A stretch of DNA of 64,000 nucleotides from Patescibacteria group bacterium (GTDB lineage: Bacteria > Patescibacteriota > Doudnabacteria > UBA920 > VMFF01). The stretch is from the NCBI GenBank assembly GCA_038065615.1, contig JBBTQQ010000005.1, forward strand, positions 7,984 through 71,983, written 5' to 3'. Shown here piece after piece: positions 20,414 through 60,357 of the stretch. A program made the translations under genes and the position numbers. Under the pieces are notes generated by a model. The model saw only the letters and a list, made by a program, of their open reading frames with translations, did not search any database and was not told where the DNA came from. Position 1 is the first letter of the stretch; each line of letters opens with the position of its first letter.

Positions 20414-20891
20414 CCACTCTATATATTAGTTGCAGAAACGGCGCTAATTACTTTAAGAGTTTAACTATATGTTTCAAAGGTTGTCAAATATACCTCAAAA
20501 AAACAACCCATAACTATAATCCCTAATATCTGGGTGTGATATACTACTAAATGCGAAGAAAAGGCAATAAACAAAGGGGGTTTAGTACCGTTGACAAAGT
20601 AAGGGTACTGTGTTAAATTACAGTGTTAGTTGGTCCTTTATATATATTTCATCCAGCCCCCTATTTGCGAGTAGCGAAAATAGATATGAATCCCTCCTAC
20701 TATTTGTAAGTAGCTATCAAGTAAAGGTTGGCAGCGTTTGTTGTCTTCCTTTCACTCGTAAATAGGGTATTGTATGAAATATTAAAGCGCTTTTGCGCTT
20801 TTTTGTTTTTATGGTATATTAAGTTGCTCACTCACACACGAGAGAGAGGCGCCGTGGCCAGACACACGGTAAAACTCGCAGGAGGTTTGCG

Positions 20892-21821
20892 ATGTCGGTA
20901 TCAGACGTTGCGGGCCGGGACAATGTCCCGTCGAGTGCAACCCCGAACATCCGTCACGATGACGGACAGGGCTTGGAATTTCACGACGCGTTGGTTCGTG
21001 CTGGCTTGACCAGGCATGACCGACAGCATGTGATCAGTTCCAAGGGGAACCTTGTTGCCCAGTCTATCGTCATGGGCATCAGGGTTGTCGCCCAGCAGGA
21101 ACGCGATCTGAAGTGGCGGGACCCGAGGGCCTGGTCTGTATCCTCGGATTGTGGATATCCGGAGAGCTTGTCTTTCCGGAGCCACGAGACCCAGGTTCGG
21201 GTTTACAAGCAGCTGTTCGGAAATCTCGATGGTTCGCACGTCGACCAGATCATTCGGAATACAGCGTTCCCAGAAGAAGCAGATCTCTGGGCTGTGATTC
21301 CCAAGCCTTGGGTCATTGCTGAGGATGTTTTCTCGGCAATGCGCCTGATGGTCGAGAAGCTCTCCGAGCTCGGGATCGTGGTTGAGAACAAGGCTGCGTA
21401 CGAGATGGACGAGGCGCACATGCACCTCATCACCAAGATGCAGATGTTCTACGCCAAGCAACACAACCACCCCGGCGACTTCATCGTACTTCCTGTCCAG
21501 TTCGGCAAGAACTGGGCCGGGCACTCGCTGGTTTCGTCCAAGGCGCAGCACAGCATCGAGGAGTTCTCGTTGGATCCGTATGCCATCTTGGCGTTGCTCT
21601 ACACGCATCCAGAACGACTGCGGGGCGAACATCAGGAACTCGGCATCCGCTGTGGCGGGGTCCTGCTGGATCGACACCACGATGACCACGACGAAGTGAC
21701 CGGTGATCACCATCTCTGCTTCCGCTGGTTCCGCGATGGGTTGCTGATCTCAGCAGACCACGGCATGTGGGACCGCGAAGCGGCCTTGGGCATCCCGACT
21801 GGCTTCGACATCGACATCTAA
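20892..21821 (+). CDS. hypothetical His-rich protein encoded in a high-GC island
   Basis: 309 aa ORF with AGGAGG RBS 8 nt upstream of the ATG; GC markedly higher than flanks; long antisense ORF 20901-21713 considered an artefact of GC richness. Confidence 0.55.
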   Translation: MSVSDVAGRDNVPSSATPNIRHDDGQGLEFHDALVRAGLTRHDRQHVISSKGNLVAQSIVMGIRVVAQQERDLKWRDPRAWSVSSDCGYPESLSFRSHETQVRVYKQLFGNLDGSHVDQIIRNTAFPEEADLWAVIPKPWVIAEDVFSAMRLMVEKLSELGIVVENKAAYEMDEAHMHLITKMQMFYAKQHNHPGDFIVLPVQFGKNWAGHSLVSSKAQHSIEEFSLDPYAILALLYTHPERLRGEHQELGIRCGGVLLDRHHDDHDEVTGDHHLCFRWFRDGLLISADHGMWDREAALGIPTGFDIDI

Positions 21822-21825
21822 CACG

Positions 21826-21888
21826 ACGCAAAAGGCGCGGGTTCTGCAAGACTAACTATCTTGTAGAATCCGCGCCGCTTCGTTTTTT
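21826..21888 (+). terminator. terminator of the high-GC island gene
   Basis: GGCGCGG...CCGCGCC stem followed by T-run. Confidence 0.45.
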
Positions 21889-21899
21889 ATATATCTTCT

Positions 21900-22430
21900 T
21901 TAAACCTTTTCTTTTAACTCCAGAAGAACTCTTGCTTTAATACTTTCAAAAGGAATTTGTTCTAACTCTTCATCTGAAAAATCTTGCAAGACAAAAGCAT
22001 CTGTCGGCATATGTTCCTTGTTCTCTCTGCTTTCAACACCAATTCGTATTCTTCGAAACTCCTTAGTACCAAGATAGTCGATTAATGAGGTAACTCCGTT
22101 GTGTCCTGCTGATCCTGAGTTGTCTGTAAACTTAATTGTCCCTAAAGGTAAATCTACATCGTCATGCAAAACCACAATATCCTTTGGTGTTAGCTTGTAG
22201 AAATCAAGAACCTGTTTTACAGCTTTTCCAGAGTCATTCATAAAGGTCTGAGGGAAAATGAAAAAAGTTTTTCCCGGCATATGTATTTCACAAATCTTTG
22301 AGTCAAAACTTGAATTACAAGAGATTGTTTGTAGTTCTTTCAAGATATGATCCAAAGCCAAGAACCCGACATTGTGTCGGTTGTTTTTGTATTTCTCACC
22401 AGGATTTCCAAGCCCAATGATTACCTGCAT
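21900..22430 (-). CDS. pth: peptidyl-tRNA hydrolase
   Basis: MQVIIGLGNPG...NRHNVGF signature. Confidence 0.9.
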   Translation of the reverse strand: MQVIIGLGNPGEKYKNNRHNVGFLALDHILKELQTISCNSSFDSKICEIHMPGKTFFIFPQTFMNDSGKAVKQVLDFYKLTPKDIVVLHDDVDLPLGTIKFTDNSGSAGHNGVTSLIDYLGTKEFRRIRIGVESRENKEHMPTDAFVLQDFSDEELEQIPFESIKARVLLELKEKV

Positions 22431-23800: not shown

Positions 23801-25186
23801 CTATTTACCTCCTGCGACAAAAAGCACCAGGTCGACTCTTGCAGTCATACTTTCTGGCTTTGGCAAAGCTTTTGTGCTTACTAATTGTTGAATATATGTA
23901 ATAGTGGCGGGTTTGTCTTCATTAACCTTGTAAAAAGCACTGTTGCTTAGCGGTAACCCTCGGTATGGTACTTCATAAACAACAACACCTGCGTTAACTA
24001 ATTGTTTTTTGATTAAGTTGTAATACTCAGGATCTCTCCCCGCGTTTTCTAAGATTAAAGAAGCAGACTCTGTTTTAACAGCTGTGTTACTGAAACTGTT
24101 TTTAAAGTATGTTTGCACTTGATTAGTTGTCACTCCTTCACATGGGAAGATTACATAACCAACTTCTTCTTTCACTCCATCACAAAACATTCCTGCTTCT
24201 AAGTCAATGCTCTCTGAAGTAATTTTAACTTCAGGAGATTTTAATATCTCAGCAAGATGTAGTAATTCGCTTGGTTCGACATTTGTGTGAGCACGATCTG
24301 CAAGAATATCTAAGAGATCATTGATTGTTCCTGAGCTTGAAAGAATACCTAAGTCTTGAACCTTGGTTTTAAAAGCGTCTAAAACTTTTGCTTGACGTAT
24401 GCTTCTAGCAATATCTGAGTCTTCTAAATTCGTGCCGTGTCTTGAACGAACAAATTGCAAAGCTCTTGTACCACTCATTTTTTCAAGACCTTTGTTAAAA
24501 ACCAAGGTTGGTAAGTATCCAAACGTATCATTTGGATATTGGCTGTCTGTAAAACTGGTATCAATCTGAACATCAATACCACCTAAGCGATCAACTGCTT
24601 TTTCAAAACCTTTAAAATCAATACTAGCAAAATATGGAATGGTTAGCCCTGTAATTTTGTCAGCAGCTTTTAAAGCTTTTTCTCCTGCTTCATTAAAATC
24701 ATGGCGTGGTTGATATCCAGCAGCAAAAGCAAAATTAATCTTTTGTTTTCCGTCTTCCCAGTAGTAATCGCGGGGGAGAGAGGTCAGAGCAACCTGTTTA
24801 GTTTCAGGATTAATGCTTGCAAGAATAATAGTGTCAGTTAAAAACGGACCATCGTGTCCTTCACCACCATACCCAAGAAGTAAAATATTAATCCTTCCTT
24901 CTGATTCTCCTTTGAGAGACGACGTGCTTCCTGAAAACACCAAAGTAGTTACCTTTTTAAAGAAAGAAGATTTATGTACAAAAACTTTGCTTCCAAAAGA
25001 ATATGCTTTAGAAAAAAGAACTCCTAAGATGATGCATAGGATAATCAGGGCTGGCCAGAATATTCTTGGGAACCAGCGCCTTTTTGTTTGTGGTTGTATA
25101 TCTTGAAATTGTTGCATAGTAGCTTGGTTAGTATATCTGAAAATGAGCCTTTTGCGAAGCAAAAGAACCCTCTTAAACGCTTGCAA
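23801..25186 (-). CDS. LCP family protein (LytR-CpsA-Psr), cell-envelope glycopolymer transferase
   Basis: TM anchor, LCP core (LLLGYGG..TDTIILASINP..LPRDYY), C-terminal LytR_C-like domain; start codon choice uncertain. Confidence 0.8.
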   Translation of the reverse strand: MQAFKRVLLLRKRLIFRYTNQATMQQFQDIQPQTKRRWFPRIFWPALIILCIILGVLFSKAYSFGSKVFVHKSSFFKKVTTLVFSGSTSSLKGESEGRINILLLGYGGEGHDGPFLTDTIILASINPETKQVALTSLPRDYYWEDGKQKINFAFAAGYQPRHDFNEAGEKALKAADKITGLTIPYFASIDFKGFEKAVDRLGGIDVQIDTSFTDSQYPNDTFGYLPTLVFNKGLEKMSGTRALQFVRSRHGTNLEDSDIARSIRQAKVLDAFKTKVQDLGILSSSGTINDLLDILADRAHTNVEPSELLHLAEILKSPEVKITSESIDLEAGMFCDGVKEEVGYVIFPCEGVTTNQVQTYFKNSFSNTAVKTESASLILENAGRDPEYYNLIKKQLVNAGVVVYEVPYRGLPLSNSAFYKVNEDKPATITYIQQLVSTKALPKPESMTARVDLVLFVAGGK

Positions 25187-25254
25187 TACTTAAAAAGAAC
25201 AGGTATATTGAATTAGTTAAGTTCTACTTTTTAGCTCTAGGTGGCGACTGTTTT

Positions 25255-25331
25255 GGACGATTAGCTCAGCTGGTTAGAGCGCACCGTTCACATCGGTGAG
25301 GTCAAAGGTTCGAGTCCTTTATCGTCCACCA
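25255..25331 (+). tRNA. tRNA-Val (anticodon CAC)
   Basis: GGACGATTAGCTCAGCTGGTTAGAGC..anticodon loop TTCACAT..GGTTCGAGTCC..ATCGTCCACCA. Confidence 0.85.
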
Positions 25332-25349: not shown

Positions 25350-25967
25350 ATGCAAACAGATCCAGAACAACAGAATACAGAAAACCAGGAAACTGAAAGC
25401 GGTTTTAAAGAACTCGGACTTTTTGTTTGGGATTTGGTTAAGGTTTTAATAATCGCGATGGCGATAATCCTACCGATTAGATATGCTGTAGCTCAACCTT
25501 TCATTGTTTCCGGTTCTTCCATGGAACCAACTTTCTATTCTGGTGAATACTTAATCATCAATGAATGGACATATCATTTCGACAATCCACAAAGAGGCGA
25601 TGTAGTAGTTTTTAAATATCCTAAAGACACAAGTCAATATTTCATAAAAAGAATAATTGCATTACCTGGTGAAAGAGTTAAGATAGAGGAAGATAACGTC
25701 ATTATTTACAACAAAGAACATCCAAACGGATGGGTGTTAGATGAATCATACATTCCTTCGTCAGACACAACTCTTCCAGTAGGTGATGGTATGACAACAT
25801 TGGGAAGCAATGAGTACTATGTTTTGGGAGACAATCGACTAGCATCATCTGATTCTCGTTTCTGGGGGCCAGTCCCTAAAAATGACATCATCGGAAAAGT
25901 TTTTGTCAGAGCTTTTCCTTTCAGTGACTTAAAGAAATTTGAAACAATTGAATACGGGGTTAAATAA
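25350..25967 (+). CDS. lepB: signal peptidase I
   Basis: SGSSMEPT Ser box and GDNRLASSDSRFWG box; start set at ATG 25350 because the track start lies inside the tRNA. Confidence 0.85.
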   Translation: MQTDPEQQNTENQETESGFKELGLFVWDLVKVLIIAMAIILPIRYAVAQPFIVSGSSMEPTFYSGEYLIINEWTYHFDNPQRGDVVVFKYPKDTSQYFIKRIIALPGERVKIEEDNVIIYNKEHPNGWVLDESYIPSSDTTLPVGDGMTTLGSNEYYVLGDNRLASSDSRFWGPVPKNDIIGKVFVRAFPFSDLKKFETIEYGVK

Positions 25968-25968
25968 T

Positions 25969-27273
25969 ATGAATATAAAGAAAAAAACAACAGTTTCTCA
26001 ATCAAGCAAACCACAATCACTTCCTGGCTTAGCCGATATTATTCCAGGACAGGATAATTACTGGGATTTTGTAAGCTCTCATCTTCAAAGAATTGCTCGT
26101 GGTTATGGTTTCAACAGAATTGAAATGCCACTCCTTGAAAATATTAGTTTGTACGCTCAAACAGAATTCGCAGAAAACAATGAAGCGGTTGATTTTGTAG
26201 ACAACAGCGCAACCAAAATTGCTGTTAGAGCAGCAAGCATGCCATCTCTGATGCGTGCTTTTCATGAATACAAAATTCCGGAAGGACACAAGGTTTCAAA
26301 ATGGTACTACCTGTCTCCGGTTTTAAGCTATGACCAGAAACAAAAGCAATACATTTCTTCTTGGCAATATGGTTTTGAAATGTTTGGCGAGTTTTCTCCT
26401 TTAAACGAGGTTCAGATGATTAGCTTGCTTTGGAAGTTCTTCAAAGCAATAGGTTTACAAAATGTTTCTTTGGAGATAGACAGCTTGGGTGACGAAGCTT
26501 GCAAAGGACAATACGAGGAAGCATTAACCGGATACTTACAAAGCAAGAAATATGAACTCTGCAATGATTGTGTGGCTGCAATTGAAGAGTTCCCAATGCA
26601 GGTTTTCAGATGCAACAACCTAGAGTGCAAAACCGTTGCAACAGACGCTCCACAATCAGTGGATTTCTTAGACACTGCTTGCCACAAACATCTTACAAAT
26701 GTTTTAGAAGGATTAGATGAGTTGGGAATAATGTACGCGTTAAATCCAATGCTTGCTGGAAAAAAAGGAACATCTAAAACAACCTTTGCTTTCAAACACA
26801 CAGAAACAACTCCAACAGGAACAGTAGACAGATTTCTAGGAGAGGGAGCATACCATGATCAGATATATAAAGAACTGACCGGCAAAAATGTTGTTTGTTT
26901 TGGTTTTCATTCAAACATTGAAAGTTTACAAAAAGCAGTTAAAGAACAAAAACAAGAACAGATCGAAACATTAGCTGTAGCAAAAGCAGAGGTTTTCTTA
27001 GCACCACTTGGTGATCTTGCTTCTAAGAAAGCCATAAAGCTATTCTCAGAACTTTGGGATGCACAGGTTTCAGTTCATGATCATTTCGGAGGAGAGGGTG
27101 TCAAAAATCAACTTAAACTAGCAGAGGGATCAAAAGCCATGATTGCTTTAATCATTGGACAAAAAGAAGCTATGGATGACATGGTTATTCTAAGAGATGT
27201 TAAATCAGGAATGCAGGAAGTTTTTAGATATGACCAAATAATTGAAGAGGTTAAAAAAAGATTGGGGAAATAG
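25969..27273 (+). CDS. histidyl-tRNA synthetase-like paralog with degenerate catalytic motifs (HisZ-like/pseudo-HisRS) retaining an anticodon-binding domain
   Basis: Class II aaRS core aligns to HisRS (GFNRIEMPLLE, motif-2 region reads WYYLSPVLSYDQKQKQYISSW instead of FRYERPQKGRYREF); C-terminal anticodon-binding-like domain present. Confidence 0.55.
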   Translation: MNIKKKTTVSQSSKPQSLPGLADIIPGQDNYWDFVSSHLQRIARGYGFNRIEMPLLENISLYAQTEFAENNEAVDFVDNSATKIAVRAASMPSLMRAFHEYKIPEGHKVSKWYYLSPVLSYDQKQKQYISSWQYGFEMFGEFSPLNEVQMISLLWKFFKAIGLQNVSLEIDSLGDEACKGQYEEALTGYLQSKKYELCNDCVAAIEEFPMQVFRCNNLECKTVATDAPQSVDFLDTACHKHLTNVLEGLDELGIMYALNPMLAGKKGTSKTTFAFKHTETTPTGTVDRFLGEGAYHDQIYKELTGKNVVCFGFHSNIESLQKAVKEQKQEQIETLAVAKAEVFLAPLGDLASKKAIKLFSELWDAQVSVHDHFGGEGVKNQLKLAEGSKAMIALIIGQKEAMDDMVILRDVKSGMQEVFRYDQIIEEVKKRLGK

Positions 27274-27274
27274 C

Positions 27275-27607
27275 ATGGAAGAATGTGTATTTTGTAAAAT
27301 CGTAAACAAAGAAGAACCAACTGAACGAATCATATTTGAAGATCAGGATTTTTTGGTTTTTCCCTCAAAGTTTCCATCAGCAGAAACACATCTTTTGTTA
27401 ATCCCTAAAAAACATATTCTTTCAATGGCACATGTTTCCCAAGAAGATGCTGATACTTTAGGACGTTTACTTGTTCTTTCAAGGGAAATTGCTGAGCTAG
27501 AAAGCATAAAAGATTACAAATTGGTTTTTAACATTGGGAAATACCTGCACGTGTCACACTTGCATCTACATCTTGTAGCAGGGAATCTAGAGAACGACCG
27601 AGTTTAG
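27275..27607 (+). CDS. HIT family (histidine triad) protein
   Basis: HVSHLHLHLV histidine triad motif. Confidence 0.8.
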   Translation: MEECVFCKIVNKEEPTERIIFEDQDFLVFPSKFPSAETHLLLIPKKHILSMAHVSQEDADTLGRLLVLSREIAELESIKDYKLVFNIGKYLHVSHLHLHLVAGNLENDRV

Positions 27608-27618
27608 CAAAGAAGAAA

Positions 27619-27650
27619 TAATGTCGCCATAATAGGGCGGCATTTTTGTT
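27619..27650 (+). terminator. rho-independent terminator
   Basis: ATGTCGCCataataGGGCGGCATTTTTGTTTT. Confidence 0.55.
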
Positions 27651-27745
27651 TTAAAGAGAATCGCTCATTTGACCAAAGCCCATATTTGGGGTATATTCAT
27701 ATCAGTTTTAATCAGTTTTTACATCCTTAGAAGGGGGTGACAGTA

Positions 27746-31728: not shown

Positions 31729-32445
31729 TTGGACAAACTGATGTTGCTTAACCGTATGGTGTTGGCTCTTGACGATATGGAACCGGATCAGATCGGTGAG
31801 CTGATCGCTGCACTTGCTCACAATGATCTTCTTCCATGGTCGTTCAAGGTCAACGATCGTTGGGTCGAGAGTGGAAAGCAGACGGTACCGATGTTGCGTC
31901 TTGCGGCCGGCGGTGCTCACGTCAGGGTGCTCGCAGACCTGAAGCTCAGCGACACCCCCAAGACCATGAGCGCAAGCGCGAGGCGGGTGCGCGAGGCGGG
32001 TGCAGTTGCACTCACAATCCATGCCAGCTGCGGCCTTGATTCCATCAAGGCTGCGCTTGAGCACGGTCCAGCGGAGATCATTGCTGTGACCTTGCTCACC
32101 TCGATCAATCGGATGAACTGCCTGGCGCTCTACGGGCGTGAGCCGATTGAGCAGGTCAAGATCTTTGCCAAATACGCGCTCGAGAGCGGGGTTGGCAATC
32201 TGGTCTGCTCCGGGGAAGAAGTCGCGACGCTTCACGAGATGTACCCTGGCATCGGTCTGCTGGTTCCCGGTGTTCGTATGCCGGGTAGCGACCTTCGGGG
32301 TCAGAAGCGCATCACTACGCCATGGGATGCTTTCAACAACGGTGCAACGCGCATCGTTGTCGGAAGCGAAGTCACGATGGCGAAGGACCCAGTGGCTACG
32401 TTCGAGAATCTGCTCGCGGAAACTGAGAAGCACGTGGAGTTCTGA
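31729..32445 (+). CDS. pyrF: orotidine 5'-phosphate decarboxylase (type 1), high-GC
   Basis: VLALDD N-terminal motif, catalytic DLKLSDTPKT (DxKxxD) and C-terminal RIVVGSEVTMAKDP phosphate-binding motif. Confidence 0.75.
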   Translation: MDKLMLLNRMVLALDDMEPDQIGELIAALAHNDLLPWSFKVNDRWVESGKQTVPMLRLAAGGAHVRVLADLKLSDTPKTMSASARRVREAGAVALTIHASCGLDSIKAALEHGPAEIIAVTLLTSINRMNCLALYGREPIEQVKIFAKYALESGVGNLVCSGEEVATLHEMYPGIGLLVPGVRMPGSDLRGQKRITTPWDAFNNGATRIVVGSEVTMAKDPVATFENLLAETEKHVEF

Positions 32446-32465
32446 CACCAACCGGAGGAGGAAGG

Positions 32466-33161
32466 ATGATAGTAACTGGGGGAAGGTGGCAGAACGAAGC
32501 TGTGACAAGCTTCCTAGACTCCCTCTGGGCCTTTGGCGCCATCATGGGCGTCGACAAGTCGCCAGAGGGCAAGGGGTTTCGGCTTGCGCTTCACGAGCGT
32601 AACCCAGATGCCCCACTCTCGCCGTTCTACTTCAACCTGCGGCGGGTCCAGTCGCACCCGGCGACCCTGTACATGGCAGCACAGATGATGAGGGAGAAGA
32701 TCATCGAGGATATTGATGGTGGTGCTTTCCAACTCATCGCCGGCATTCCAACTGCCGGTACACCGTTTTCGACAGCCTTGTCCCTGCTGATGCATCGCGG
32801 ACAGGTGTCGCCGCGGATGCAGGCGAAGGGGCACGGGGTTGGTGATCTCGTGGATGGTGACTTCCATGACGGGCAGACCGTTCTGTTGGTCGACGATCTG
32901 ATCACCGAGGCTGATTCCAAGCTTCGTGCGATCGACATCCTGCAGCGCGCCGGTCTCATCGTTCAGAATATCGCCGTCCTGATCGACCGGGAACAGGGCG
33001 GCAGACAGCGGCTTGAGGCTGCTGGGTACAAGGTTCACCCCGTCTTCACGGTCACTGAAGTCTTCTCCTACTACCTGGCTGCTGGTGAATCCACCCAGTC
33101 CGCCTACGACCAGATCGTGGAGTACCTCGACCGCGAAGCCGAGAAGCACGCGAACCAGTAA
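32466..33161 (+). CDS. pyrE: orotate phosphoribosyltransferase, high-GC
   Basis: SPFYFN and VLLVDDLITEADSKLRAIDILQRAGLIVQNIAVLIDREQGG align closely with E. coli PyrE PRPP-binding region; GGAGGAGG RBS. Confidence 0.8.
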   Translation: MIVTGGRWQNEAVTSFLDSLWAFGAIMGVDKSPEGKGFRLALHERNPDAPLSPFYFNLRRVQSHPATLYMAAQMMREKIIEDIDGGAFQLIAGIPTAGTPFSTALSLLMHRGQVSPRMQAKGHGVGDLVDGDFHDGQTVLLVDDLITEADSKLRAIDILQRAGLIVQNIAVLIDREQGGRQRLEAAGYKVHPVFTVTEVFSYYLAAGESTQSAYDQIVEYLDREAEKHANQ

Positions 33162-33220
33162 CAAACAATCGACAAGAGGAAAAACCGTCCCTGGAGGAGG
33201 ACGGATGAAAGAAACAGGCT

Positions 33221-33262
33221 ATGGCTCTGGTGCAGATTTTGTACCAGAGCCTGCTGTTTTTT
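33221..33262 (+). terminator. terminator closing the pyrFE island
   Basis: GGCTCTGGT...ACCAGAGCC stem then TGCTGTTTTTT. Confidence 0.55.
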
Positions 33263-33974: not shown

Positions 33975-36900
33975 ATGAGTGAAAACTTACAAATCAGAAC
34001 CAAGAACGCACTATCCGAACTCGGAGAAAAAATCTTTCTAGATCGTTATGCAGTTAAAGATGCTAAAAAAGAAACATTGGCAGTAGGAGATACTGTTGTC
34101 ATCAATGTTAATTTAAAAACAGGACAGAGAGAAATTGGAACAGTTAAGGAAGTTGATAGGTTTAGCAAACAAGTAGAAGTAACCTTGCGCGATGGCACAG
34201 TAGAGAAACGCGCAATAGAGCATGTAGACAAACCTTTGGAAACAGTTCCTGAACAAATGTTTGAGCGCATAGCTCGTCATATTGCAAGCGTTGAGAAAAC
34301 TCCAGAAAAACAAAATGAATGGCAGGGGAAATTTAGAGAACTAATGGATGACTGGAAATATGTTCCAGCAGGAAGAATCTTTACTGGTGCAGGAACCGGT
34401 CAAAACCTAACTTTTTACAACTGCTATGTCATACCATGTCCTCAGGATTCTCGTGGTGGTATTTTTGACACACTCAGACAAATGGCAGAAATCATGTCCC
34501 GAGGGGGCGGTGTTGGTATAAACGTATCTACGTTGAGACCAAGATACGCATATGTTAAAGGTGTTAATGGAAGATCTTCTGGTTCTGTTTCTTGGGCTTC
34601 TTTGTATAGCTTTGTTACGGGTTTAATTGAACAGGGTGGTTGTTTTGGACCGAATGAAAGAATTGCAACCAATGTTGGTTTGGTTCCTGCAAAAGAATTG
34701 GCTGACCGTATTGAAGCAGGAGAAGCAATATACGCCCAAACCCATAAAGGTATGCGTCGAATAACAGCTAAATTCAGAAATGGCGTGAAAGAACTTTATG
34801 AAGTAACAACTGAGCGTGGATTTAGCACCGAGATAACAGCAGATCATAAGGTCGCAGTACTATTAAACGGCCGAGTTGAAACAACTGCTTTAAAAAATTT
34901 GAAGCAAGGAGACGACATCTTGTTGTTGCTTGGCAATGCTACTGGTCAAAATTATGTGTCGCTTAAGAAAAGTGATTACAAGCGTTCTGTAATGAGTACG
35001 ACCTTAAATACTGATGTTCGTCTTCCTGAAATGCTCAATGAAGATTTGGCATACCTTGTTGGATATATGTTGGGTGATGGATATGTGAGTTGGGGTAAAA
35101 AAGTAAATTGGTCTGCTCCTAAAGCTGTTAAAATGGCAACCGCCGATACATACCCTGAAATTCGTCAGAGAATTGTTGATGCGATCCAAAATCTTTTTGG
35201 TGTTGATGCAGTAATTGAAAAAGGCGACGGTGCTTGCCAAAACGTTTCTTTGTATTCTCGCATTGTAATTGAGTGGCTCTTAGAAAATGGTTTACTCAAA
35301 TCTAAAGCAAAAGATATTCGTGTGCCAGAAAGCATTTTTCGCTCACCGACCAGCGTGACTGGGTCATTCATAGCCGGGTATTTTGACGCTGACGGTTGCA
35401 ACCGTGGAGCAAAGGGTGGTTATGGTATTGACAGCATAAGTCGTGAAATGCTCACAGACGTGCAACAGCTTTTAGCTGCAAACGGTGTCTTGTCTGCTAT
35501 TCGTGCAACTGATCGAACAGAACAAGGTTGGCAAACAATCTATCGTTTAAGTGTTGCTGGAAATCAATTTAAAGAGCGTTTTGCAGATTTGGTTTCTACT
35601 GCCAAGCGTTCTGACTTCAATGGCAAGCGCGATATGTTTAATACTTACCCGTCAGAAATTTTAGCTGCTGTCGGTGTGCGTAGCAAGGACCGTCAGGGAA
35701 TCTATGATGGCACATCTCCGCAGGTTTCTTTTAATCAACTTGTACACATCCAAAAACGTTTGAATACTGTCGAACAATATTCTGCCGCCCAATATCTTGA
35801 TGACATCATGCACACCATTCCTGACACGATTACCGCAATCAAATCGGTTGGTAAAAGCGATGTTTATGACTTTGAGGTTGAAGATGTCCATTTGCTCAGT
35901 GGTGGTGGTGTTTACACTTCAAACAGCAGAAGAGGCGCTTTAATGCTCATTCTAAACGTTTGGCATCCTGATATTGTTGATTTCATCAATGCGAAGAGAG
36001 AAGCTGGAAAAATAACTAACGCGAATATTTCTGTTGGTATTACTGATGATTTCATGGAAGCTGTTAAAAATGATGCTGATTGGGATTTAGTTTTCCCAGA
36101 CACATCAGATCCTTTGTACCAAGCAGAGTGGGCTAATACACAAGGTGATATTAAAGCATGGCAAAAACTTGGTGGTAAAGTCGTTGTTCATAAAACAATG
36201 AAAGCAAAAGAAATCTGGGATCAAATCATTTCCTCAGCATGGTCTTCAGCAGAACCTGGTGTTTACTTCATTGATCGCGCAAACTATCTTTCAAATTCTT
36301 ACTACTACGCAGCATTGCCTTGTACCAATCCTTGTGGTGAACAACCACTTCCTGCTTGGGGTGTTTGTAACCTAGGACATGTTAATCTTGCAAAACATCT
36401 TTCAAACAATGAAGTTGATTGGCAGAAATTAAAAGAAACAGTAAAGTATGCAGTTCGTTTCCAGGACAATGTCATAGATGCAACACCATACTTTTTTGAT
36501 GAGAACTTCAAACAACAAATGTCTGAAAGAAGAGTTGGCATGGGAACAATCGGACTCGCAGAGATGTTAATTAAATTAAGAATTAGATATGGAAGTGATG
36601 AAGCAATTCAATTCATCGACAAGCTCTATCAATTCATTGCAGTTACATCTTACGAAACATCAGTAGAAATCGCTCGTGAAAAAGGATCTTTCCCTCAATT
36701 TGATGCTGAAAAATTCTTAGAAAGCGGATACATGAAAGCAATGCCTGAATATATTCGTTCATTAGTCAGACAGTATGGTGTCAGAAACGTAACAATAATG
36801 ACTCAGGCACCAACTGGAACAATCGGAACAATGGTTGGAACATCAACAGGAATTGAACCATTCTTCTCATGGACATACTTTAGAAAGAGCAGACTTGGTG

Positions 36901-37931
36901 TTCATGAAGAAAAGATTAAACTAGCTCAAGACTGGTTGGATCAAAATCCAGGACAAGAACTTCCAGAATACTTTGTTACTGCAATGAGCCTTGCTCCTGA
37001 AGACCACGTTAGAGTTCAGGCAGCAGTTCAACGTTGGACAGACTCAGCAATTTCAAAGACCTGTAATGCCCCTTCAAACTACACTGTAGAAGACACTAAA
37101 AAGCTATACCAGATGATGTATGACCTTGGTTGCAAAGGTGGAACCATTTACCGTGATGGTTCAAGAGATGAACAAATCTTAGCAACAGATGCAAAGAACC
37201 TTGGTAAAGATGTTCAGGAACAACTAGAGGCAAAAGCAAAGATTGAAACACAAGTAACTCAAATTGTTCAAGAAGGACAAGATCTCTTACAAATTGGTGA
37301 CCACAAGTTCTTGGTTAAAAAACTCATTCAAAACGGAACTAAATTTGAAGTTGTACCAAGGGAACGTCCAATTGAGATGCAAGGAACAACATACAAATTA
37401 AATACGCCGTATGGTTCGCTCTTTGTAACCATAAACGAAGATGAGCATGGACCATTTGAAGTCTTTGCACAGCTTGGTAAAGCTGGTGGTTTTTTCGCAG
37501 CTCAATCAGAAGCTCTATGCAGAATGATTTCCTTAAGTTTAAGATCAGGCGTTGCTGTAGAGGAAATAATCAAACAGTTGAAGGGAATTAGAAGTACTGA
37601 GGTTGCATTTAACCAAGGCGAGATAATTTATTCATTGCCTGATGGTATTGCAAAGACCATGGAAAAGCACATCAATCGCAAACAGCAAAGCTTACAACTC
37701 CAATTCAAACAAGCAGAACCAGCAAAACTCGATTTAAAAGAAGAAGTCAAAATGACAGTTTCAGAAGGACCGGTAGAAGTAAGTTCTGTTGCGGAGTTTC
37801 AGCCTAAACAACAAAAGGTTTCAATGGCAGACTATGGTCATGCGCCGGTTTGTCCAGATTGTTCTTCAATGCTTGTTATGGCAGAGGGATGTATGAAATG
37901 TGATGTCTGCGGATATTCTAAGTGCGGTTAA
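33975..37931 (+). CDS. nrdJ: class II (adenosylcobalamin-dependent) ribonucleotide reductase NrdJ, interrupted by an in-frame intein
   Basis: NPCGEQPLPAWGVCNLGHVNL active-site region, SRRGALM motif, C-terminal Cys-rich zinc ribbon; 1318 aa vs about 700-900 expected, difference explained by the intein. Confidence 0.9.
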   Translation: MSENLQIRTKNALSELGEKIFLDRYAVKDAKKETLAVGDTVVINVNLKTGQREIGTVKEVDRFSKQVEVTLRDGTVEKRAIEHVDKPLETVPEQMFERIARHIASVEKTPEKQNEWQGKFRELMDDWKYVPAGRIFTGAGTGQNLTFYNCYVIPCPQDSRGGIFDTLRQMAEIMSRGGGVGINVSTLRPRYAYVKGVNGRSSGSVSWASLYSFVTGLIEQGGCFGPNERIATNVGLVPAKELADRIEAGEAIYAQTHKGMRRITAKFRNGVKELYEVTTERGFSTEITADHKVAVLLNGRVETTALKNLKQGDDILLLLGNATGQNYVSLKKSDYKRSVMSTTLNTDVRLPEMLNEDLAYLVGYMLGDGYVSWGKKVNWSAPKAVKMATADTYPEIRQRIVDAIQNLFGVDAVIEKGDGACQNVSLYSRIVIEWLLENGLLKSKAKDIRVPESIFRSPTSVTGSFIAGYFDADGCNRGAKGGYGIDSISREMLTDVQQLLAANGVLSAIRATDRTEQGWQTIYRLSVAGNQFKERFADLVSTAKRSDFNGKRDMFNTYPSEILAAVGVRSKDRQGIYDGTSPQVSFNQLVHIQKRLNTVEQYSAAQYLDDIMHTIPDTITAIKSVGKSDVYDFEVEDVHLLSGGGVYTSNSRRGALMLILNVWHPDIVDFINAKREAGKITNANISVGITDDFMEAVKNDADWDLVFPDTSDPLYQAEWANTQGDIKAWQKLGGKVVVHKTMKAKEIWDQIISSAWSSAEPGVYFIDRANYLSNSYYYAALPCTNPCGEQPLPAWGVCNLGHVNLAKHLSNNEVDWQKLKETVKYAVRFQDNVIDATPYFFDENFKQQMSERRVGMGTIGLAEMLIKLRIRYGSDEAIQFIDKLYQFIAVTSYETSVEIAREKGSFPQFDAEKFLESGYMKAMPEYIRSLVRQYGVRNVTIMTQAPTGTIGTMVGTSTGIEPFFSWTYFRKSRLGVHEEKIKLAQDWLDQNPGQELPEYFVTAMSLAPEDHVRVQAAVQRWTDSAISKTCNAPSNYTVEDTKKLYQMMYDLGCKGGTIYRDGSRDEQILATDAKNLGKDVQEQLEAKAKIETQVTQIVQEGQDLLQIGDHKFLVKKLIQNGTKFEVVPRERPIEMQGTTYKLNTPYGSLFVTINEDEHGPFEVFAQLGKAGGFFAAQSEALCRMISLSLRSGVAVEEIIKQLKGIRSTEVAFNQGEIIYSLPDGIAKTMEKHINRKQQSLQLQFKQAEPAKLDLKEEVKMTVSEGPVEVSSVAEFQPKQQKVSMADYGHAPVCPDCSSMLVMAEGCMKCDVCGYSKCG
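34641..35924 (+). mobile_element. intein with LAGLIDADG homing-endonuclease domain inside nrdJ
   Basis: Starts with Cys (CFGPNERIATNVGLV), two LAGLIDADG motifs (LAYLVGYMLGDGYV, FIAGYFDADGC), ends ...VYTSN followed by Ser; spliced junction would read LIEQGG-SRRGALM. Confidence 0.75.
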
Positions 37932-39626: not shown

Positions 39627-40952
39627 ATGAAATTAATAGAACCACGAAATCTAAAGGGCTTCAGAGACTATCTGCCAACAGATCAGATTCCAAGAAGCAT
39701 CATGTTTTCAAAAATCAAAGCAGTCTTTGAGCGTTTTGGATTTGAGCCATTAGAAACGCCTGTTTTAGAGTATGAAGACATTCTAGCTGGTAAATACGGA
39801 GCAGAGGGCGAGAAATTAATGTATCGCTTCAAAGACAATGGCGAAAGAGATGTTGCTATGCGATATGACCTAACGGTTCCTCTTGCCAGAGTTTCAGCAC
39901 AATACCAAAATGATCTGCCAAAGCCTTTCAAGAGATATCAGATTGCTCCAGTGTGGAGAGCAGAGAATACACAAAAAGGAAGATATCGCGAGTTCTATCA
40001 ATGTGATGTTGATGTTGTTGGAGCACCTGCTGGTGTTGCAGATGCTGAATGTATTGCTATGGTAGAACAGATTTTCTTAGAGCTGGGTATAAAGAAATTT
40101 GTTGTTAAAGTAAACAACAGAAAAATATTGAATGCGATAATGCTGACAGCAGGGGTTTCAGAAGACAAGATACTAGATGCGATAAGAGCCATAGACAAGT
40201 TGGATAAGGTGGGGGCTAAAGCAGTTGTTTTAGAATTAAAAGAAAAAGTCGGTTTAAGCTTAAACGAAGCTGAAGGCTTAATTACCCTTGCCTCAACAAA
40301 AGTTCCTGATATAGGTGCCCTAAAAGCATTCATAAACAAATACATCCTTAAACAACCTCAAGGACAAGAAGGCTTTGATGAATTAAACAGTGTTTTCACA
40401 GCCTTAAAAGTTTTTGGAATAAGAAACGTTGAGATTGATCTTTCTTTAGCTCGTGGTCTTGATTACTATACTTCAACAATCTTTGAAACAATCATTACTG
40501 AAACAATAGACTCAAGAAAATATGGTTCAGTTGCTGGGGGAGGTAGATACGACAAATTAATCAAACTTTTCACGGGAAAAGATGTTCCTGCTGTTGGTAT
40601 TTCAATTGGTATTGATCGTTTGTTTGCAGCAATGGAAGACCTTGGTTTAGTTAAAAAACAAGGCATTGTTTCAGTATTGGTCTTAAACATGGAAGAATCT
40701 CTTCAAAAAGAATACTTAAAGATTGTTTCAGACTTGAGAAAAGCTGGTATTAATTCAGAGTTTTACTATGTTCCTTCAGAAATGAAAAAGCAGTTTGCTT
40801 TTGCAGAAGCAAAAAACATCCCATATGGAATACTTTTTGGTTTAGAAGAAGCAAAAAAAGGAACAGTTACCTTAAGAGACTTAAAAACAAGAAAACAAAA
40901 GACCGTTAAACAAAAAGACCTTCCAAAGGAATTAAAAAAACTTTTAAAATAG
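39627..40952 (+). CDS. hisS: histidyl-tRNA synthetase
   Basis: Motif 1/2 intact (QIAPVWRAENTQKGRYREFYQCDVD), class II anticodon-binding domain. Confidence 0.95.
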   Translation: MKLIEPRNLKGFRDYLPTDQIPRSIMFSKIKAVFERFGFEPLETPVLEYEDILAGKYGAEGEKLMYRFKDNGERDVAMRYDLTVPLARVSAQYQNDLPKPFKRYQIAPVWRAENTQKGRYREFYQCDVDVVGAPAGVADAECIAMVEQIFLELGIKKFVVKVNNRKILNAIMLTAGVSEDKILDAIRAIDKLDKVGAKAVVLELKEKVGLSLNEAEGLITLASTKVPDIGALKAFINKYILKQPQGQEGFDELNSVFTALKVFGIRNVEIDLSLARGLDYYTSTIFETIITETIDSRKYGSVAGGGRYDKLIKLFTGKDVPAVGISIGIDRLFAAMEDLGLVKKQGIVSVLVLNMEESLQKEYLKIVSDLRKAGINSEFYYVPSEMKKQFAFAEAKNIPYGILFGLEEAKKGTVTLRDLKTRKQKTVKQKDLPKELKKLLK

Positions 40953-43690: not shown

Positions 43691-43718
43691 AAAAAAGAAC
43701 CTCATCTGAGGTTCTTTT
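43691..43718. terminator. bidirectional terminator between ndk and the RelA/SpoT gene
   Basis: AAAAAAGAACCTCATCTGAGGTTCTTTT. Confidence 0.6.
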
Positions 43719-45198
43719 ACTTTCTCTTAATCAAGTTTTTTAAAGTGTTAAATATCCCACTTTGGTTTTCATTCAAGTAGTGCCGTATTTTATGCTTTGC
43801 ATTAGATGTTTTAACCTGTTTTAACCAATCCTGTGAAATCTTTACAGGTTTTTTTGTTTTAATAATCTCAACAACATCACCGCTGTGAAGCGCGTGATCA
43901 ATCTTTACCATCTTGCCATTAACTTTAGCGCCCATCATAAAGAAACCAAGATCAGAGTGGACTGAAAAAGCAAAATCAATTGGGGTTGCTCCCTCAGGAA
44001 GATCTTTAACGTCTCCTTTTGGTGTTAAGACGAAAATACGGTCTTGGAAAAAATCAATCTTTAAAGCTTGCAAGAAATCCTCCGCATTCTTAACCTCATC
44101 CTGCATACTTTGTAAGTCTTCAACCCACTGAACCTTAAAGCTGTTAATATCATCACTTTTGCCTTCTTCCTCATACACCCAGTGAGCAGCAATACCACGC
44201 TCAGCTTCATCATGCATTTGTTCAGTTCTAATTTGTATTTCAAAAACATTCTTTTCAGAGTCAAAAACAGTGGTGTGAATAGAGCGATAGCCATTTGGTT
44301 TAGGTAGTGCGATGAAGTCTTTAACACGGCCAGGAAGAGGCTGTAAGTGCTTATGAATAGCTCCAAGAGCTGCATAACAGTCTGCAGTTGATTGTGTAAT
44401 GACTCTTAAAGCAATCAAATCATAAATCTTGTTAACATCCCCGTCATAACGAGGGAGTTTCTTGTACAGTGAGTAAACACGCTTGACCCTACCTTTTAAA
44501 TCTTCAAACTTAACTCCTTCGGTTTTAAGGATAGTTGAAACATCTCTTTGTAGTTTCTTCAAAGCAGATTGTCTTCCAGAAAGAGCAGCTTCCAAAACTT
44601 CCTTTGTTTTCTTAAATGCTTCTGGGTTTGCAATCTCAAAAGCCGTATCTTCTAACTCGTCCTTCCATTCTCCAATACCCAAACGGTTTGCAATAGGGGC
44701 AAAAATTTCAAGAGTCTCTTCCGCAATTCTTTTTTGTTTTTCTTTTTTAACATATTGAATTGTGCGCATATTATGAATTCGATCAGCAAGCTTAATCAAA
44801 ATTACACGAATATCTTTAGACGTTGCCACAAACATCTTGCGCAGATTTTCAACATAATACTTGTCTTTGCTGTTTCTTAAACGCACTTTTCCAAGTTTAG
44901 TTACTCCATCAACTAAAGATGCAACCTCTTTTCCAAATTCTTTTTCAATTTCTAAAAGACCAACCTTAGTGTCTTCAGGAACATCGTGCAAAAGTGTTGC
45001 AGCTATAGTCGTTGCATTTGGAAAAATCCTTCCGAGAATCAAAGCAGCTTCTTGAGGATGTATGACATACTCTTCTCCGGAAAATCGTTTCTGCCCTTTA
45101 TGTGCCAATTCCCCAAACTTAAAAGCACGCTCTAAAAGCTCTTTGTTCTTGTCTTTAAACTTAAATTGAATCTTACTTAGAAATCCGTTAAAATCCAT
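43717..45198 (-). CDS. bifunctional (p)ppGpp synthetase/hydrolase, RelA/SpoT family (short form)
   Basis: HD hydrolase motif (HPQEAA...LLHDVPED), synthetase domain, TGS domain; 493 aa lacks ACT domain. Confidence 0.85.
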   Translation of the reverse strand: MDFNGFLSKIQFKFKDKNKELLERAFKFGELAHKGQKRFSGEEYVIHPQEAALILGRIFPNATTIAATLLHDVPEDTKVGLLEIEKEFGKEVASLVDGVTKLGKVRLRNSKDKYYVENLRKMFVATSKDIRVILIKLADRIHNMRTIQYVKKEKQKRIAEETLEIFAPIANRLGIGEWKDELEDTAFEIANPEAFKKTKEVLEAALSGRQSALKKLQRDVSTILKTEGVKFEDLKGRVKRVYSLYKKLPRYDGDVNKIYDLIALRVITQSTADCYAALGAIHKHLQPLPGRVKDFIALPKPNGYRSIHTTVFDSEKNVFEIQIRTEQMHDEAERGIAAHWVYEEEGKSDDINSFKVQWVEDLQSMQDEVKNAEDFLQALKIDFFQDRIFVLTPKGDVKDLPEGATPIDFAFSVHSDLGFFMMGAKVNGKMVKIDHALHSGDVVEIIKTKKPVKISQDWLKQVKTSNAKHKIRHYLNENQSGIFNTLKNLIKRK

Positions 45199-47562: not shown

Positions 47563-47602
47563 TACTGTTTTATTCTAGCACTTTTGGATCCTCTGTGGAG
47601 GG

Positions 47603-47631
47603 TTGACATGGTAAGTCCTTGGTGTTAATAT
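47603..47631 (+). promoter_or_regulatory. consensus-like sigma70 promoter (TTGACA-17-TAATAT)
   Basis: TTGACA at 47603-47608, 17-nt spacer, TAATAT at 47626-47631; drives the high-GC small ORF. Confidence 0.5.
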
Positions 47632-47776
47632 GCTTTTTCTACAGTATTCTCCTGCAGCCGCTCGCGTGAGCGAAGCGGAAGCAACACAAGCCCAGAGGGC
47701 GAGTGGCTGTAGGAAACCCTTTCGTTCTGGCACAAGGGTCCAGATACGAAGGACAACTCGTTCGGAGGAACCATCT

Positions 47777-47945
47777 GATGACCACCACGAGCACCGGCCG
47801 ACTGCGGACCCGCAAGCCCCAGGCGAGCATTTTTCCCACCATCATGGACATCCTGGACGCGGTGAAGCACGACGACGGCAGCGGGCAGCAGGGCATCGAC
47901 AAGGCGCCGGCCACGCAGTCCGACGGCAGCGGCACCGCGCAGTAG
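47777..47945 (+). CDS. small high-GC hypothetical protein (56 aa)
   Basis: GGAGGA RBS 9 nt upstream of the ATG; MTTTSTGRLRTRKPQASIFPTIMDILDAVKHDDG; followed by several GC-rich hairpins to about 48095. Confidence 0.35.
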
Positions 47946-48339
47946 CAAGGCGGCGCCGGGTCACCAGGGAAGCTCGCCCCGAGGCGCTCGGGGCGGGCAA
48001 CCCCAGGTTTTCCTGGGGAGCAAGCGAAGAAGCAGCAACCGCATTGGTTGACTGCTTTTTTCGTCCCTTTCTTAGGTCCTTGACAAACTAGCAATATTTA
48101 GTTAATATTCCCAGTTAAAACAAAATATTAGTTATGGCTCCTGATTTCGTGCATACGGATTGGGGGCAACCCAAAAGGCTTGTGTAAGAGCATTTATTTA
48201 TGAGGCTCTATGGCACGAGTCTTTTTGTTTTGTATATTTAATACTTTGTTAATGAATTTTTAATGTTTTTTGCGTATTAATAGTAGGAAGGTTAAAAAGG
48301 AATATTAGTTTAGATCTAGTCTGTGTTTTCAGGAGCGCG

Positions 48340-59241: not shown

Positions 59242-59436
59242 TTGCGTTAGTCTAGAAGCTTTGTTAAAGCTGAACTTTTCTAGAAGTCTAAACTAGATCA
59301 AAAGACCGCCCAACCAGGGCGGTCTTTTGTATTGTGTATAAGTTAAAACAAGAGAGTAGATTAACCAGCTATTAAACTTTTTGACCTCCCTTTCATATCT
59401 GCGCTACAATAACCCTCCAACAATATTAATTGAAGT

Positions 59437-59721
59437 TTGTTTATGGATACAGAAACAAAAAAGGAGTTTGAGAAGATAAGCTCAGAGTTTAAGACAATGA
59501 ATCTTGAATTCAGGAAAATAGATCAAAGATTTGATCAGGTTGATAATGATATATCCCTAGTATTAATGACTGTGAGTAAAACATATGAAGAACTGGAAAT
59601 AGAGGTTAAATCAATCAATGCTCATATGGTAACCAAAGACTATCTTGATCGCCGTTTAGAGAGATTTGTTAGTACAAACAAGCTTTTGTTAAGAGAAGAA
59701 GGACCTGATTACAAGGTTTAA
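59437..59721 (+). CDS. small coiled-coil protein, heptad-repeat family paralog (short repeat tract)
   Basis: Shares 5' UTR CCAACAATATTAATTG and C-terminal MVTKDYLDRRLERF..LLLREEGPDYKV with 59938 gene. Confidence 0.5.
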   Translation: MFMDTETKKEFEKISSEFKTMNLEFRKIDQRFDQVDNDISLVLMTVSKTYEELEIEVKSINAHMVTKDYLDRRLERFVSTNKLLLREEGPDYKV

Positions 59722-59937
59722 TTTGGTGCGCTTAAAAGCGCTGATGCAAAGTGGACTACTTTAGAACGAGTTTTTAAAAAAGCTGTGCTTGTCGAAAAAC
59801 AAGAACCAGGAGCTGAAACAAAAAAACCAAGAAAGAACTAAAACAAGCGAATAGATTAACTATATATTAAATATTTTGACTTTAGTTTTAGATCTAGGAT
59901 ACAATAACTTTCCAACAATATTAATTGGAGTTCGTTT

Positions 59938-60324
59938 ATGGATATTGAGACCAAAAGAGAGTTTGAAAAGATAGGTCTTCAATTAGACCAAAAGTTTAAA
60001 GACGTGGATAAACGGTTCGAGAAGGTAGACAAGAGGTTTGAGCAAATAGACAAGAGATTCGAGAAGGTAGACAAGAGGTTTGAAAAAGTTGATCAGAGGT
60101 TTGAGAATTTGGAAAACATCATGATCAAAGGGTTTAACAGGGTGGACGAAGAAATTGCTTTAGTTTTAAGAACAATGAATGCATTTTCAACAGCCATGGA
60201 AACAGAAATCAAAGCAATGAACAGCCGGATGGTAACCAAAGACTATCTTGATCGTCGTTTAGAAAGATTTGCCAGTGCAAACCATCTTTTGTTGAGAGAT
60301 GAAGGACCTGATTACAAGGTTTGA
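59938..60324 (+). CDS. small coiled-coil protein, heptad-repeat family paralog with five VDKRFEK repeats
   Basis: Five tandem 21-bp repeats at 60004-60108; conserved C-terminus with the 59437 gene. Confidence 0.5.
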   Translation: MDIETKREFEKIGLQLDQKFKDVDKRFEKVDKRFEQIDKRFEKVDKRFEKVDQRFENLENIMIKGFNRVDEEIALVLRTMNAFSTAMETEIKAMNSRMVTKDYLDRRLERFASANHLLLRDEGPDYKV

Positions 60325-60357
60325 TTTGCCATGTGTTGACAGGGCTATTTGGACGTG

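Follow-up and report, generated by a model that had tools for sequence, protein, structure and literature searches.

At positions 25969–27273 of a 64,000-nt stretch of the small genome of a Patescibacteria group bacterium (contig JBBTQQ010000005.1; this stretch is referred to as the window, and all positions are counted from its start), we identified a gene for a full-length protein with the fold of a bacterial histidyl-tRNA synthetase (HisRS), here called pseudo-HisRS. An intact HisRS of another subfamily is encoded in the same window. It is very probable that pseudo-HisRS is a conserved, catalytically dead descendant of the ancestral hisS gene. For the full statement, namely that this descendant of the ancestral hisS is a non-catalytic, anticodon-specific binder of tRNA-His, we see the chances as evenly balanced.

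The reading frame of pseudo-HisRS is unbroken, with 434 codons, an ATG at 25969 and a stop codon at 27271–27273. A TTG at 25939 is a possible alternative upstream start with a poor fit to the family alignment. The protein matched the Pfam families tRNA-synt_His (PF13393; E 3e-22, residues 20–320) and HGTP_anticodon (PF03129; E 1e-9, residues 341–431), and this free-standing 434-aa product has no domain beyond the HisRS core and the anticodon domain. When scored with the NCBIfam equivalog model for hisS (TIGR00442, cut-off 286.75 bits), pseudo-HisRS remained under the cut-off with 201 bits, while the HisRS encoded at 39627–40952 exceeded it with 415.3 bits. With both Pfam domains present and a second, high-scoring HisRS nearby, the original prediction of a full-length HisRS-like protein in addition to a canonical hisS was borne out. 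The AlphaFold2 model of pseudo-HisRS (mean pLDDT 91.2) was HisRS-like. Its best Foldseek matches were the HisRS structures 1qe0, 4e51 and 1kmm and the tRNA complex 4rdx; a structure of the HisRS-like (HRSL) domain of GCN2, 9bf3, followed at rank 43 (E 1.6e-21). As modeled, the full HisRS architecture is intact, comprising a core with an insertion domain and a C-terminal anticodon domain.

Catalytic residues were read from alignments to the HisRS of S. aureus and E. coli and to an intact syntenic orthologue (P0283). The RPEGT segment of intact enzymes is RAASM in pseudo-HisRS, and motif 2 has changed from FRHERPQ.GR.RQF to LSYDQKQK-QYISSW, with S120 in the place of the motif-2 arginine and Q127 in the place of the motif-2 loop arginine. 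The HisA segment LVRGLDYY reads LA-GKKGTS, its arginine being deleted; HisB has changed from GGGRYD to GEGAYHD, and motif 3 from G.ER to NIES, with S319 replacing the arginine. All three arginines essential for adenylate formation are therefore absent, while Q133 and E137 (equivalent to Q127 and E131 of E. coli) are kept. The elements that engage the acceptor end, i.e., the N-terminal arginine, the GG pocket for G-1 and the motif-2 loop, show no conservation. The motif-2, HisA and motif-3 strings vary freely among members of the pseudo-HisRS family, the motif-2 loop even between orthologues, and it follows that no alternative pocket is under selection in these segments. Taken at the level of these alignments, pseudo-HisRS is catalytically dead. 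The earlier claim of degenerate catalytic motifs that make aminoacylation unlikely agrees with the loss of the three arginines and of the histidine-binding motifs, and in none of the three alignments were the motif-2 and motif-3 residues intact. The motif-2 string quoted in support of that claim, LSYDQKQKQYISSW, is indeed present, at residues 119–132. Motif 2 of the canonical hisS was correctly described as intact, but the string given for it, FRYERPQKGRYREF, was partly wrong and is absent from the gene, which reads VWRAENTQKGRYREF.

Pseudo-HisRS is maintained under strong purifying selection. Its dN/dS was 0.036 and 0.037 in comparisons with orthologues at 96% and 91% protein identity, and by part it was 0.04 for the core and 0.017 for the C-terminal (anticodon-binding) domain. 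Between the window and a near-identical strain, 29 nt (2.2%) of the gene differ, yet only one of 434 residues does. That strain is represented by the species-representative contig L005 (CAYIKZ010000002.1), to which the window is not identical: the two align as a mosaic of blocks with 100% and 87–99% identity, which fits strain variants or co-assembly. Relatives of pseudo-HisRS were found in at least 177 species-level genomes in a scan of one genome per species, mostly labeled Ca. Doudnabacteria or Patescibacteria group, with some third-party assemblies labeled Saccharibacteria. More than 120 clusters at 90% identity share 42–66% identity with pseudo-HisRS. The open reading frame is not a product of chance given these related clusters and the dN/dS of 0.036.

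The distribution of constraint along the protein is inverted relative to that in the working enzyme. Among 15 genomes, mean pairwise identity of the dead copy was 49% in the N-terminal half of the core, 59% in the insertion domain, 45% in the C-terminal half of the core and 79% in the anticodon domain; for the working HisRS of the same genomes, the respective values were 74%, 39%, 66% and 43%. We also compared the family with intact bacterial-type (type-1) HisRS of Patescibacteria, or candidate phyla radiation (CPR) bacteria. The dead core has lost constraint at 49 conserved positions, and in its N-terminal half, 37 positions conserved in intact relatives are no longer constrained. The anticodon domain has lost two constrained positions, shares 29 and has gained seven. 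Four cysteines in the insertion domain (C198, C201, C215 and C220) are invariant or nearly so; this Cys4 knuckle, which is common to intact CPR type-1 HisRS, is probably a Zn site.

The working HisRS lies ~12 kb downstream of pseudo-HisRS and carries every expected motif (RYDLT, RAENTQKGRYREFYQ, RGLDYY, GGGRYD and GIDR). The two proteins share 23% identity. The best PDB matches of pseudo-HisRS were the S. aureus and E. coli HisRS, and those of the working HisRS were the Elizabethkingia, human (cytosolic) and Nostoc enzymes. A recent duplication of the hisS of the window is ruled out by the low identity and the different subfamilies. The term "paralog" used in the original prediction is misleading, as pseudo-HisRS belongs to another subfamily and occupies a slot that in another Patescibacteria genome holds an intact hisS.

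This slot is highly conserved. The gene order topA ... pth-der-lytR-lepB-X-HIT-rpsU-yqeY-ftsA-ftsZ, where X is the pseudo-HisRS gene, was kept in all 80 species-level loci retrieved (HIT gave no match in a few of them), as well as in four further loci with more distant dead members. In 14 related loci, both HisRS genes were full-length, with the working HisRS located 4–10 kb downstream, next to comEC-ndk-rel; for 13 pairs of dead and working HisRS homologues, the longest contigs were of identical length. In a different Patescibacteria lineage (locus L086), the HisRS in the slot pth-lepB-X-HIT-...-yqeY-ybeY-ftsA-ftsZ has kept every motif and is 29% identical to pseudo-HisRS. Because an intact enzyme sits in the same slot there, pseudo-HisRS most likely represents the ancestral bacterial-type hisS, left in place after the loss of catalysis, rather than a copy of the working gene. 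The HIT gene adjoins the intact orthologue in L086 too and is absent next to the dead copy in several lineages. Since the adjacency predates the loss of catalysis and is not universal, it is no sign of a newly acquired functional connection between HIT and pseudo-HisRS, and the case for such a connection is weakened.

To see how far the degeneration extends, the 147 nearest full-length representatives at 50% identity were scored at 11 catalytic positions, of which intact enzymes keep 8–9 as aligned. By this measure, 71 representatives were intact, 62 kept four positions or fewer and 14 were intermediate. More distant degenerate members occupy the same slot in loci L085, L088 and L089. The matches to a profile built from distant degenerate members were for the most part intact type-1 HisRS of Patescibacteria, with an anticodon-domain signature like that of the dead family, which fits descent of the dead forms from that enzyme. 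On a neighbour-joining tree of the 147 representatives, the clade of the window and its sister clade (23 representatives) were degenerate throughout, and elsewhere dead and intact forms were interleaved on long branches. We did not trust this tree for counting independent losses.

The sister clade of dead HisRS-like proteins has features of its own. It includes the protein encoded at 10001–11275 of L088 and the representatives P0255, P0262, P0277, P0282, P0286, P0295, P0320, P0324, P0325, P0342, P0343, P0350 and P0354. At the former active site, its members show [SP]PT[HQ] at the position of RPEGT and (H)ELG at the end of motif 2, and most have GGNY in place of GGRY. The core of the L088 protein is too divergent for Pfam, and its anticodon domain alone was recognized. 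These recurring residues hint at a different, possibly ligand-binding, specialization in the sister clade.

We next consider what the retained anticodon domain may do. Anticodon recognition is a minor identity element in true HisRS enzymes. In the complex of T. thermophilus HisRS with tRNA-His, E386–E388 read G34, K397 and K399 read G36, and Q404 reads U35 (PMC4357726). E400, R409 and Q416 are invariant in the pseudo-HisRS family, and their E-9-R-7-Q spacing equals that of E388, K397 and Q404 in T. thermophilus. All 69 degenerate representatives have R409, and 63 of them have GQ[KR]E. The head motif of pseudo-HisRS, G-x-x-E ... K/R ... G-x-Q, aligns with E. coli HisRS, and the mapping to T. 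thermophilus residues was made from this alignment and the motif spacing. We infer that E400, R409 and Q416 read the GUG anticodon and that pseudo-HisRS probably binds tRNA-His without charging it. The suggestion of a regulatory or tRNA-binding pseudo-synthetase in the original prediction is thus plausible, the tRNA-binding part being drawn from the conserved residues.

The most likely sequence of events is as follows. The old hisS lost its contacts with ATP, histidine and the acceptor end while staying under strong purifying selection, with aminoacylation presumably carried out by the second HisRS of another subfamily. Selection keeps the anticodon-binding domain, the insertion domain with its Cys4 knuckle and the dimer-forming core scaffold. 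The most likely action of the resulting HisRS-shaped, presumably dimeric protein would be sequence-specific, non-catalytic binding to tRNA-His at its GUG anticodon loop, or to an RNA that imitates this loop, and it would neither engage nor charge the 3' end of the tRNA. Candidate outcomes of such binding are buffering, sensing, hand-over, protection or regulation. Selection on the head would be expected to be stronger than in true enzymes because the anticodon would be the sole specific contact left.

Several observations weigh against tRNA-His binding of this kind. Net charge is −6.9 in the insertion domain and +2.1 in the anticodon domain, compared to +1.6 and +10.5, respectively, in intact CPR type-1 HisRS. 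This loss of positive charge argues against extensive contacts with the tRNA backbone, especially in the acceptor stem, and hence against ordinary binding of the whole tRNA, and it would be compatible with a protein partner. The acceptor end can no longer be held as in intact enzymes, given the loss of the G-1 pocket (GG), the N-terminal arginine and the motif-2 loop. A binder of tRNA-His that does not charge it would compete with the working enzyme, so that a benefit must be postulated. The extreme conservation of the C-terminal head fits a conserved protein partner equally well. The residue mapping also has a weak spot, as phmmer left the Thermus anticodon domain unaligned. Finally, neither the window nor 46 related loci contained a tRNA-His gene in which co-variation of G-1, C73 and the anticodon could be followed.

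The main competing explanation is that pseudo-HisRS is a non-catalytic protein-binding subunit, with the conserved head and the core scaffold contacting a protein instead of RNA. The partner could be the working HisRS, in a heterodimer or complex of the kind formed by SLIMP, a dead SerRS paralogue that pairs with mitochondrial SerRS; alternatively, it could be the HIT or LepB protein of the same operon or the short Rel protein. The seven constrained positions that the anticodon domain has beyond those of intact enzymes, the loss of net positive charge in the family, the retained dimer-interface region of class II synthetases (motif 1, YGF..E.P) and the tight packing of lepB and HIT around the gene, with 1-nt spacers, would all suit such a role. 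However, the residues under constraint coincide with the anticodon readers of genuine HisRS and are the same in intact relatives; a heterodimer is made less likely by the 23% identity and different subfamilies of the two HisRS proteins; and the HIT neighbor is both older than the loss of catalysis and missing beside the gene in several lineages. Overall, we regard a protein-binding role as a real, if rather unlikely, alternative. A narrower form of the tRNA-binding explanation is that pseudo-HisRS is a free-standing bacterial tRNA sensor, a counterpart of the GCN2 HisRS-like domain, which would hold tRNA-His by its anticodon arm, with the acceptor end exposed, and report or buffer the charging state to another factor. 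Candidate factors are the short Rel encoded near the working hisS, a nuclease or a modification enzyme. This form appears quite improbable to us. The Rel/SpoT homologue of the window (43717–45198, minus strand) is unusually short (493 aa): it is limited to HD, RelA_SpoT and TGS domains, and the regulatory domains found at the C-terminus of long RelA are absent. It belongs to a hisS(type 2)-comEC-ndk-rel cluster in many related loci.

Three other explanations fared worse. Pseudo-HisRS resembles HisZ, the regulatory subunit of the short ATP phosphoribosyltransferase (HisG), in being HisRS-like without catalytic residues, and some database records name close relatives accordingly, but we give this function almost no credence. 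The best HisZ score was 70.7 bits (TIGR00443, cut-off 271.65), the NF0089xx HisZ models gave at most 32 bits against cut-offs of at least 224, and the hisS match was far better. A complete and highly conserved anticodon-binding domain is kept, and in all genomes examined the gene is part of a housekeeping cluster with lepB, rpsU and ftsAZ. Searches of the window and 86 related loci (1.48 Mb) with tblastn, using E. coli HisG, D, C, B, H, A, F and I, yielded no match at E ≤ 0.1, in line with the earlier remark that no his-biosynthesis genes are apparent, and no HisG Pfam match occurred in the unannotated ORFs tested. Amino-acid biosynthesis is generally absent from Patescibacteria. Within the loci searched, the lack of his genes, together with the scores, the domains present and the genomic setting, led us to reject HisZ, and the doubts about HisZ raised in the original prediction were supported. 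A still-active HisRS, or another aminoacyl- or adenylate-forming enzyme with unconventional residues, could account for the full-length fold, for purifying selection on the core over short time scales (dN/dS 0.04) and for the retained Q133 and E137. This is nevertheless very improbable, as neither the class II arginines of motifs 2 and 3 nor the arginine of HisA is left, the active-site strings are unconserved among orthologues and an intact HisRS co-occurs. Likewise, a functionless relic on its way to loss would explain the decayed catalytic motifs and a core that in some lineages is too divergent for Pfam, but it is highly unlikely: the frame is intact in all of the species-level genomes counted above, dN/dS is about 0.04, the anticodon domain is more conserved across the clade than that of the working enzyme, and the same slot has been held across deep divergence. 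Low dN/dS and breadth of conservation together rule out a decaying pseudogene.

We compared pseudo-HisRS to known systems built on the same or related folds. Intact bacterial-type HisRS (E. coli- or S. aureus-like; among Patescibacteria type-1 enzymes, e.g., P0283 and Nealsonbacteria P0505) have the same domain order and fold, and the intact Patescibacteria type-1 enzymes also share the slot lepB-hisS-HIT-...-yqeY-ftsA-ftsZ, the Cys4 knuckle and the anticodon signature GQKE...R...G.QE. Unlike them, pseudo-HisRS lacks the contacts with ATP, histidine and the acceptor end, falls below the equivalog cut-off, has a much lower net charge and has had its constraint moved from the core to the anticodon domain. 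HisZ is likewise derived from HisRS and has lost aminoacylation. HisZ acts together with HisG, is encoded among his genes and has no functional anticodon-binding domain, whereas pseudo-HisRS kept this domain, scored below the cut-offs of the HisZ models and has no his genes in its vicinity. The HRSL domain of GCN2 is also a dead, dimeric HisRS-shaped module with a C-terminal part resembling an anticodon domain, and pseudo-HisRS is presumably dimeric too. The GCN2 domain belongs to a large kinase of eukaryotes and has no specificity for tRNA-His; pseudo-HisRS, in contrast, is free-standing and bacterial, is fused to neither a kinase nor an effector domain and has kept the HisRS-specific anticodon readers. 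Binding of uncharged tRNA by the GCN2 domain is reported in the literature (PMC4335047, PMC11363354). Pseudo-HisRS can further be set beside full-length class II synthetase folds that lost catalysis and were re-used as binding subunits. Such are SLIMP, an insect mitochondrial SerRS-like protein, and POLG2, the accessory subunit of DNA polymerase gamma. Unlike pseudo-HisRS, both arose from synthetases other than HisRS, occur in eukaryotes or organelles and act with established protein or DNA partners. Pseudo-HisRS therefore belongs to none of the functional HisRS, HisZ or GCN2-type modules. We found no description of a Patescibacteria pseudo-HisRS in the searchable literature.

Table 1. Positions of pseudo-HisRS, its parts, its neighbors and the working HisRS in the window
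Feature	Position	Strand	Description
Promoter-like site	25181–25209		Precedes tRNA-Val(CAC)
tRNA-Val(CAC)	25255–25331	+	Just 5' of lepB; possibly the first gene of the unit
lepB (signal peptidase I)	25350–25967	+	Upstream gene, same tightly packed unit
Pseudo-HisRS gene	25969–27273	+	Bacterial-type HisRS fold, active site predicted to be dead; 434 aa plus stop
Core, N-terminal half	26014–26493	+	Residues 16–175; holds degenerate RPEGT (RAASM, residues 87–91) and motif 2
Degenerate motif-2 region	26317–26388	+	Residues 117–140, PVLSYDQKQKQYISSWQYGFEMFG
Insertion domain	26494–26754	+	Residues 176–262; second-best conserved part
Cys4 knuckle	26560–26628	+	C198-x2-C201...C215-x4-C220, in insertion domain
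Core, C-terminal half	26755–26973	+	Residues 263–335; degenerate HisA (GKKGTS), HisB (GEGAYHD) and motif 3 (FGFHSNIES)
Anticodon-binding domain	26974–27270	+	Residues 336–434; most conserved part
Putative anticodon-reading head	27157–27219	+	G397-Q-K-E400 ... R409 ... G414-M-Q416-E417
HIT-family gene	27275–27607	+	Downstream of pseudo-HisRS
Terminator-like hairpin plus T-run	27620–27654	+	Closes the lepB-pseudo-HisRS-HIT unit
Working HisRS	39627–40952	+	Eukaryote/Bacteroidota-like subfamily, every motif intact

The genes immediately around pseudo-HisRS are listed in Table 1. A single nucleotide separates the lepB stop from the ATG of pseudo-HisRS, and another its stop from the start of the HIT-family gene. 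Given these spacers, the hairpin after HIT and the promoter-like site before tRNA-Val(CAC), pseudo-HisRS sits in a compact unit (tRNA-Val)-lepB-X-HIT. tRNA-Val(CAC) is also found upstream of lepB in the same orientation in about 28 of 46 related loci, and it may be co-transcribed with lepB, pseudo-HisRS and HIT. Its CAC anticodon complements the GUG anticodon of tRNA-His, which is probably a coincidence. In an Rfam scan of the window, only tRNAs reached gathering scores, and no T-box or other known RNA element was detected. PADLOC did not match the pseudo-HisRS protein to any defence system, and membership in such a system was rejected.

Other features of the window were noted as well. Three GC-rich islands (55–67% GC, in a genome of 39% GC) are located at ~20800–21900, ~31750–33250 and ~47600–48150. 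Their ORFs have no Pfam match, except for a threshold-level phosphoribosyltransferase domain at 32466–33161, and no Rfam family was found in them at E ≤ 0.05, the only hit up to E 0.1 being a spurious eukaryotic snoRNA model at E 0.08. The first island is 79–83% identical to sequences of two close relatives and is replaced by a different GC-rich sequence in L005; the second is 100% identical in L005. These islands could be mobile or hypervariable segments. The ribonucleotide reductase gene at 33975–37931 (plus strand) encodes 1318 aa, compared to 864–924 aa in related loci, and contains, at about residues 254–639, an intein that includes a homing endonuclease of the LAGLIDADG type (Pfam Intein_splicing and LAGLIDADG_3). 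Two pairs of direct repeats (132–135 nt, 80–83% identical) at 59344–60328 span adjacent small coiled-coil-like ORFs (59437–59721 and 59938–60324), in what looks like a local tandem gene duplication.

Repurposed dead synthetase paralogues are few and informative, with HisZ, the GCN2 HisRS-like domain, POLG2 and SLIMP as the main examples. Pseudo-HisRS is an apparent free-standing bacterial case, conserved across a class-level lineage of Patescibacteria and with degenerate relatives in other lineages. It is also a clear case of functional displacement, in which the ancestral hisS in its slot lost catalysis and a HisRS of another subfamily does the charging. Close relatives carry a mixture of names in databases ("histidine--tRNA ligase", "HisS family protein", "ATP phosphoribosyltransferase regulatory subunit" or "hypothetical protein"), and for CPR bacteria, both metabolic reconstructions and phylogenies from marker genes can be led astray by such labels. 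The evolutionary pattern is somewhat unexpected and has good support; the function that we derive from it is putative. If pseudo-HisRS did act as a tRNA sensor, and if this were common to all degenerate type-1 forms (about half of the 147 representatives), it would constitute a widespread, so far unrecognized regulatory layer in ultra-small bacteria.

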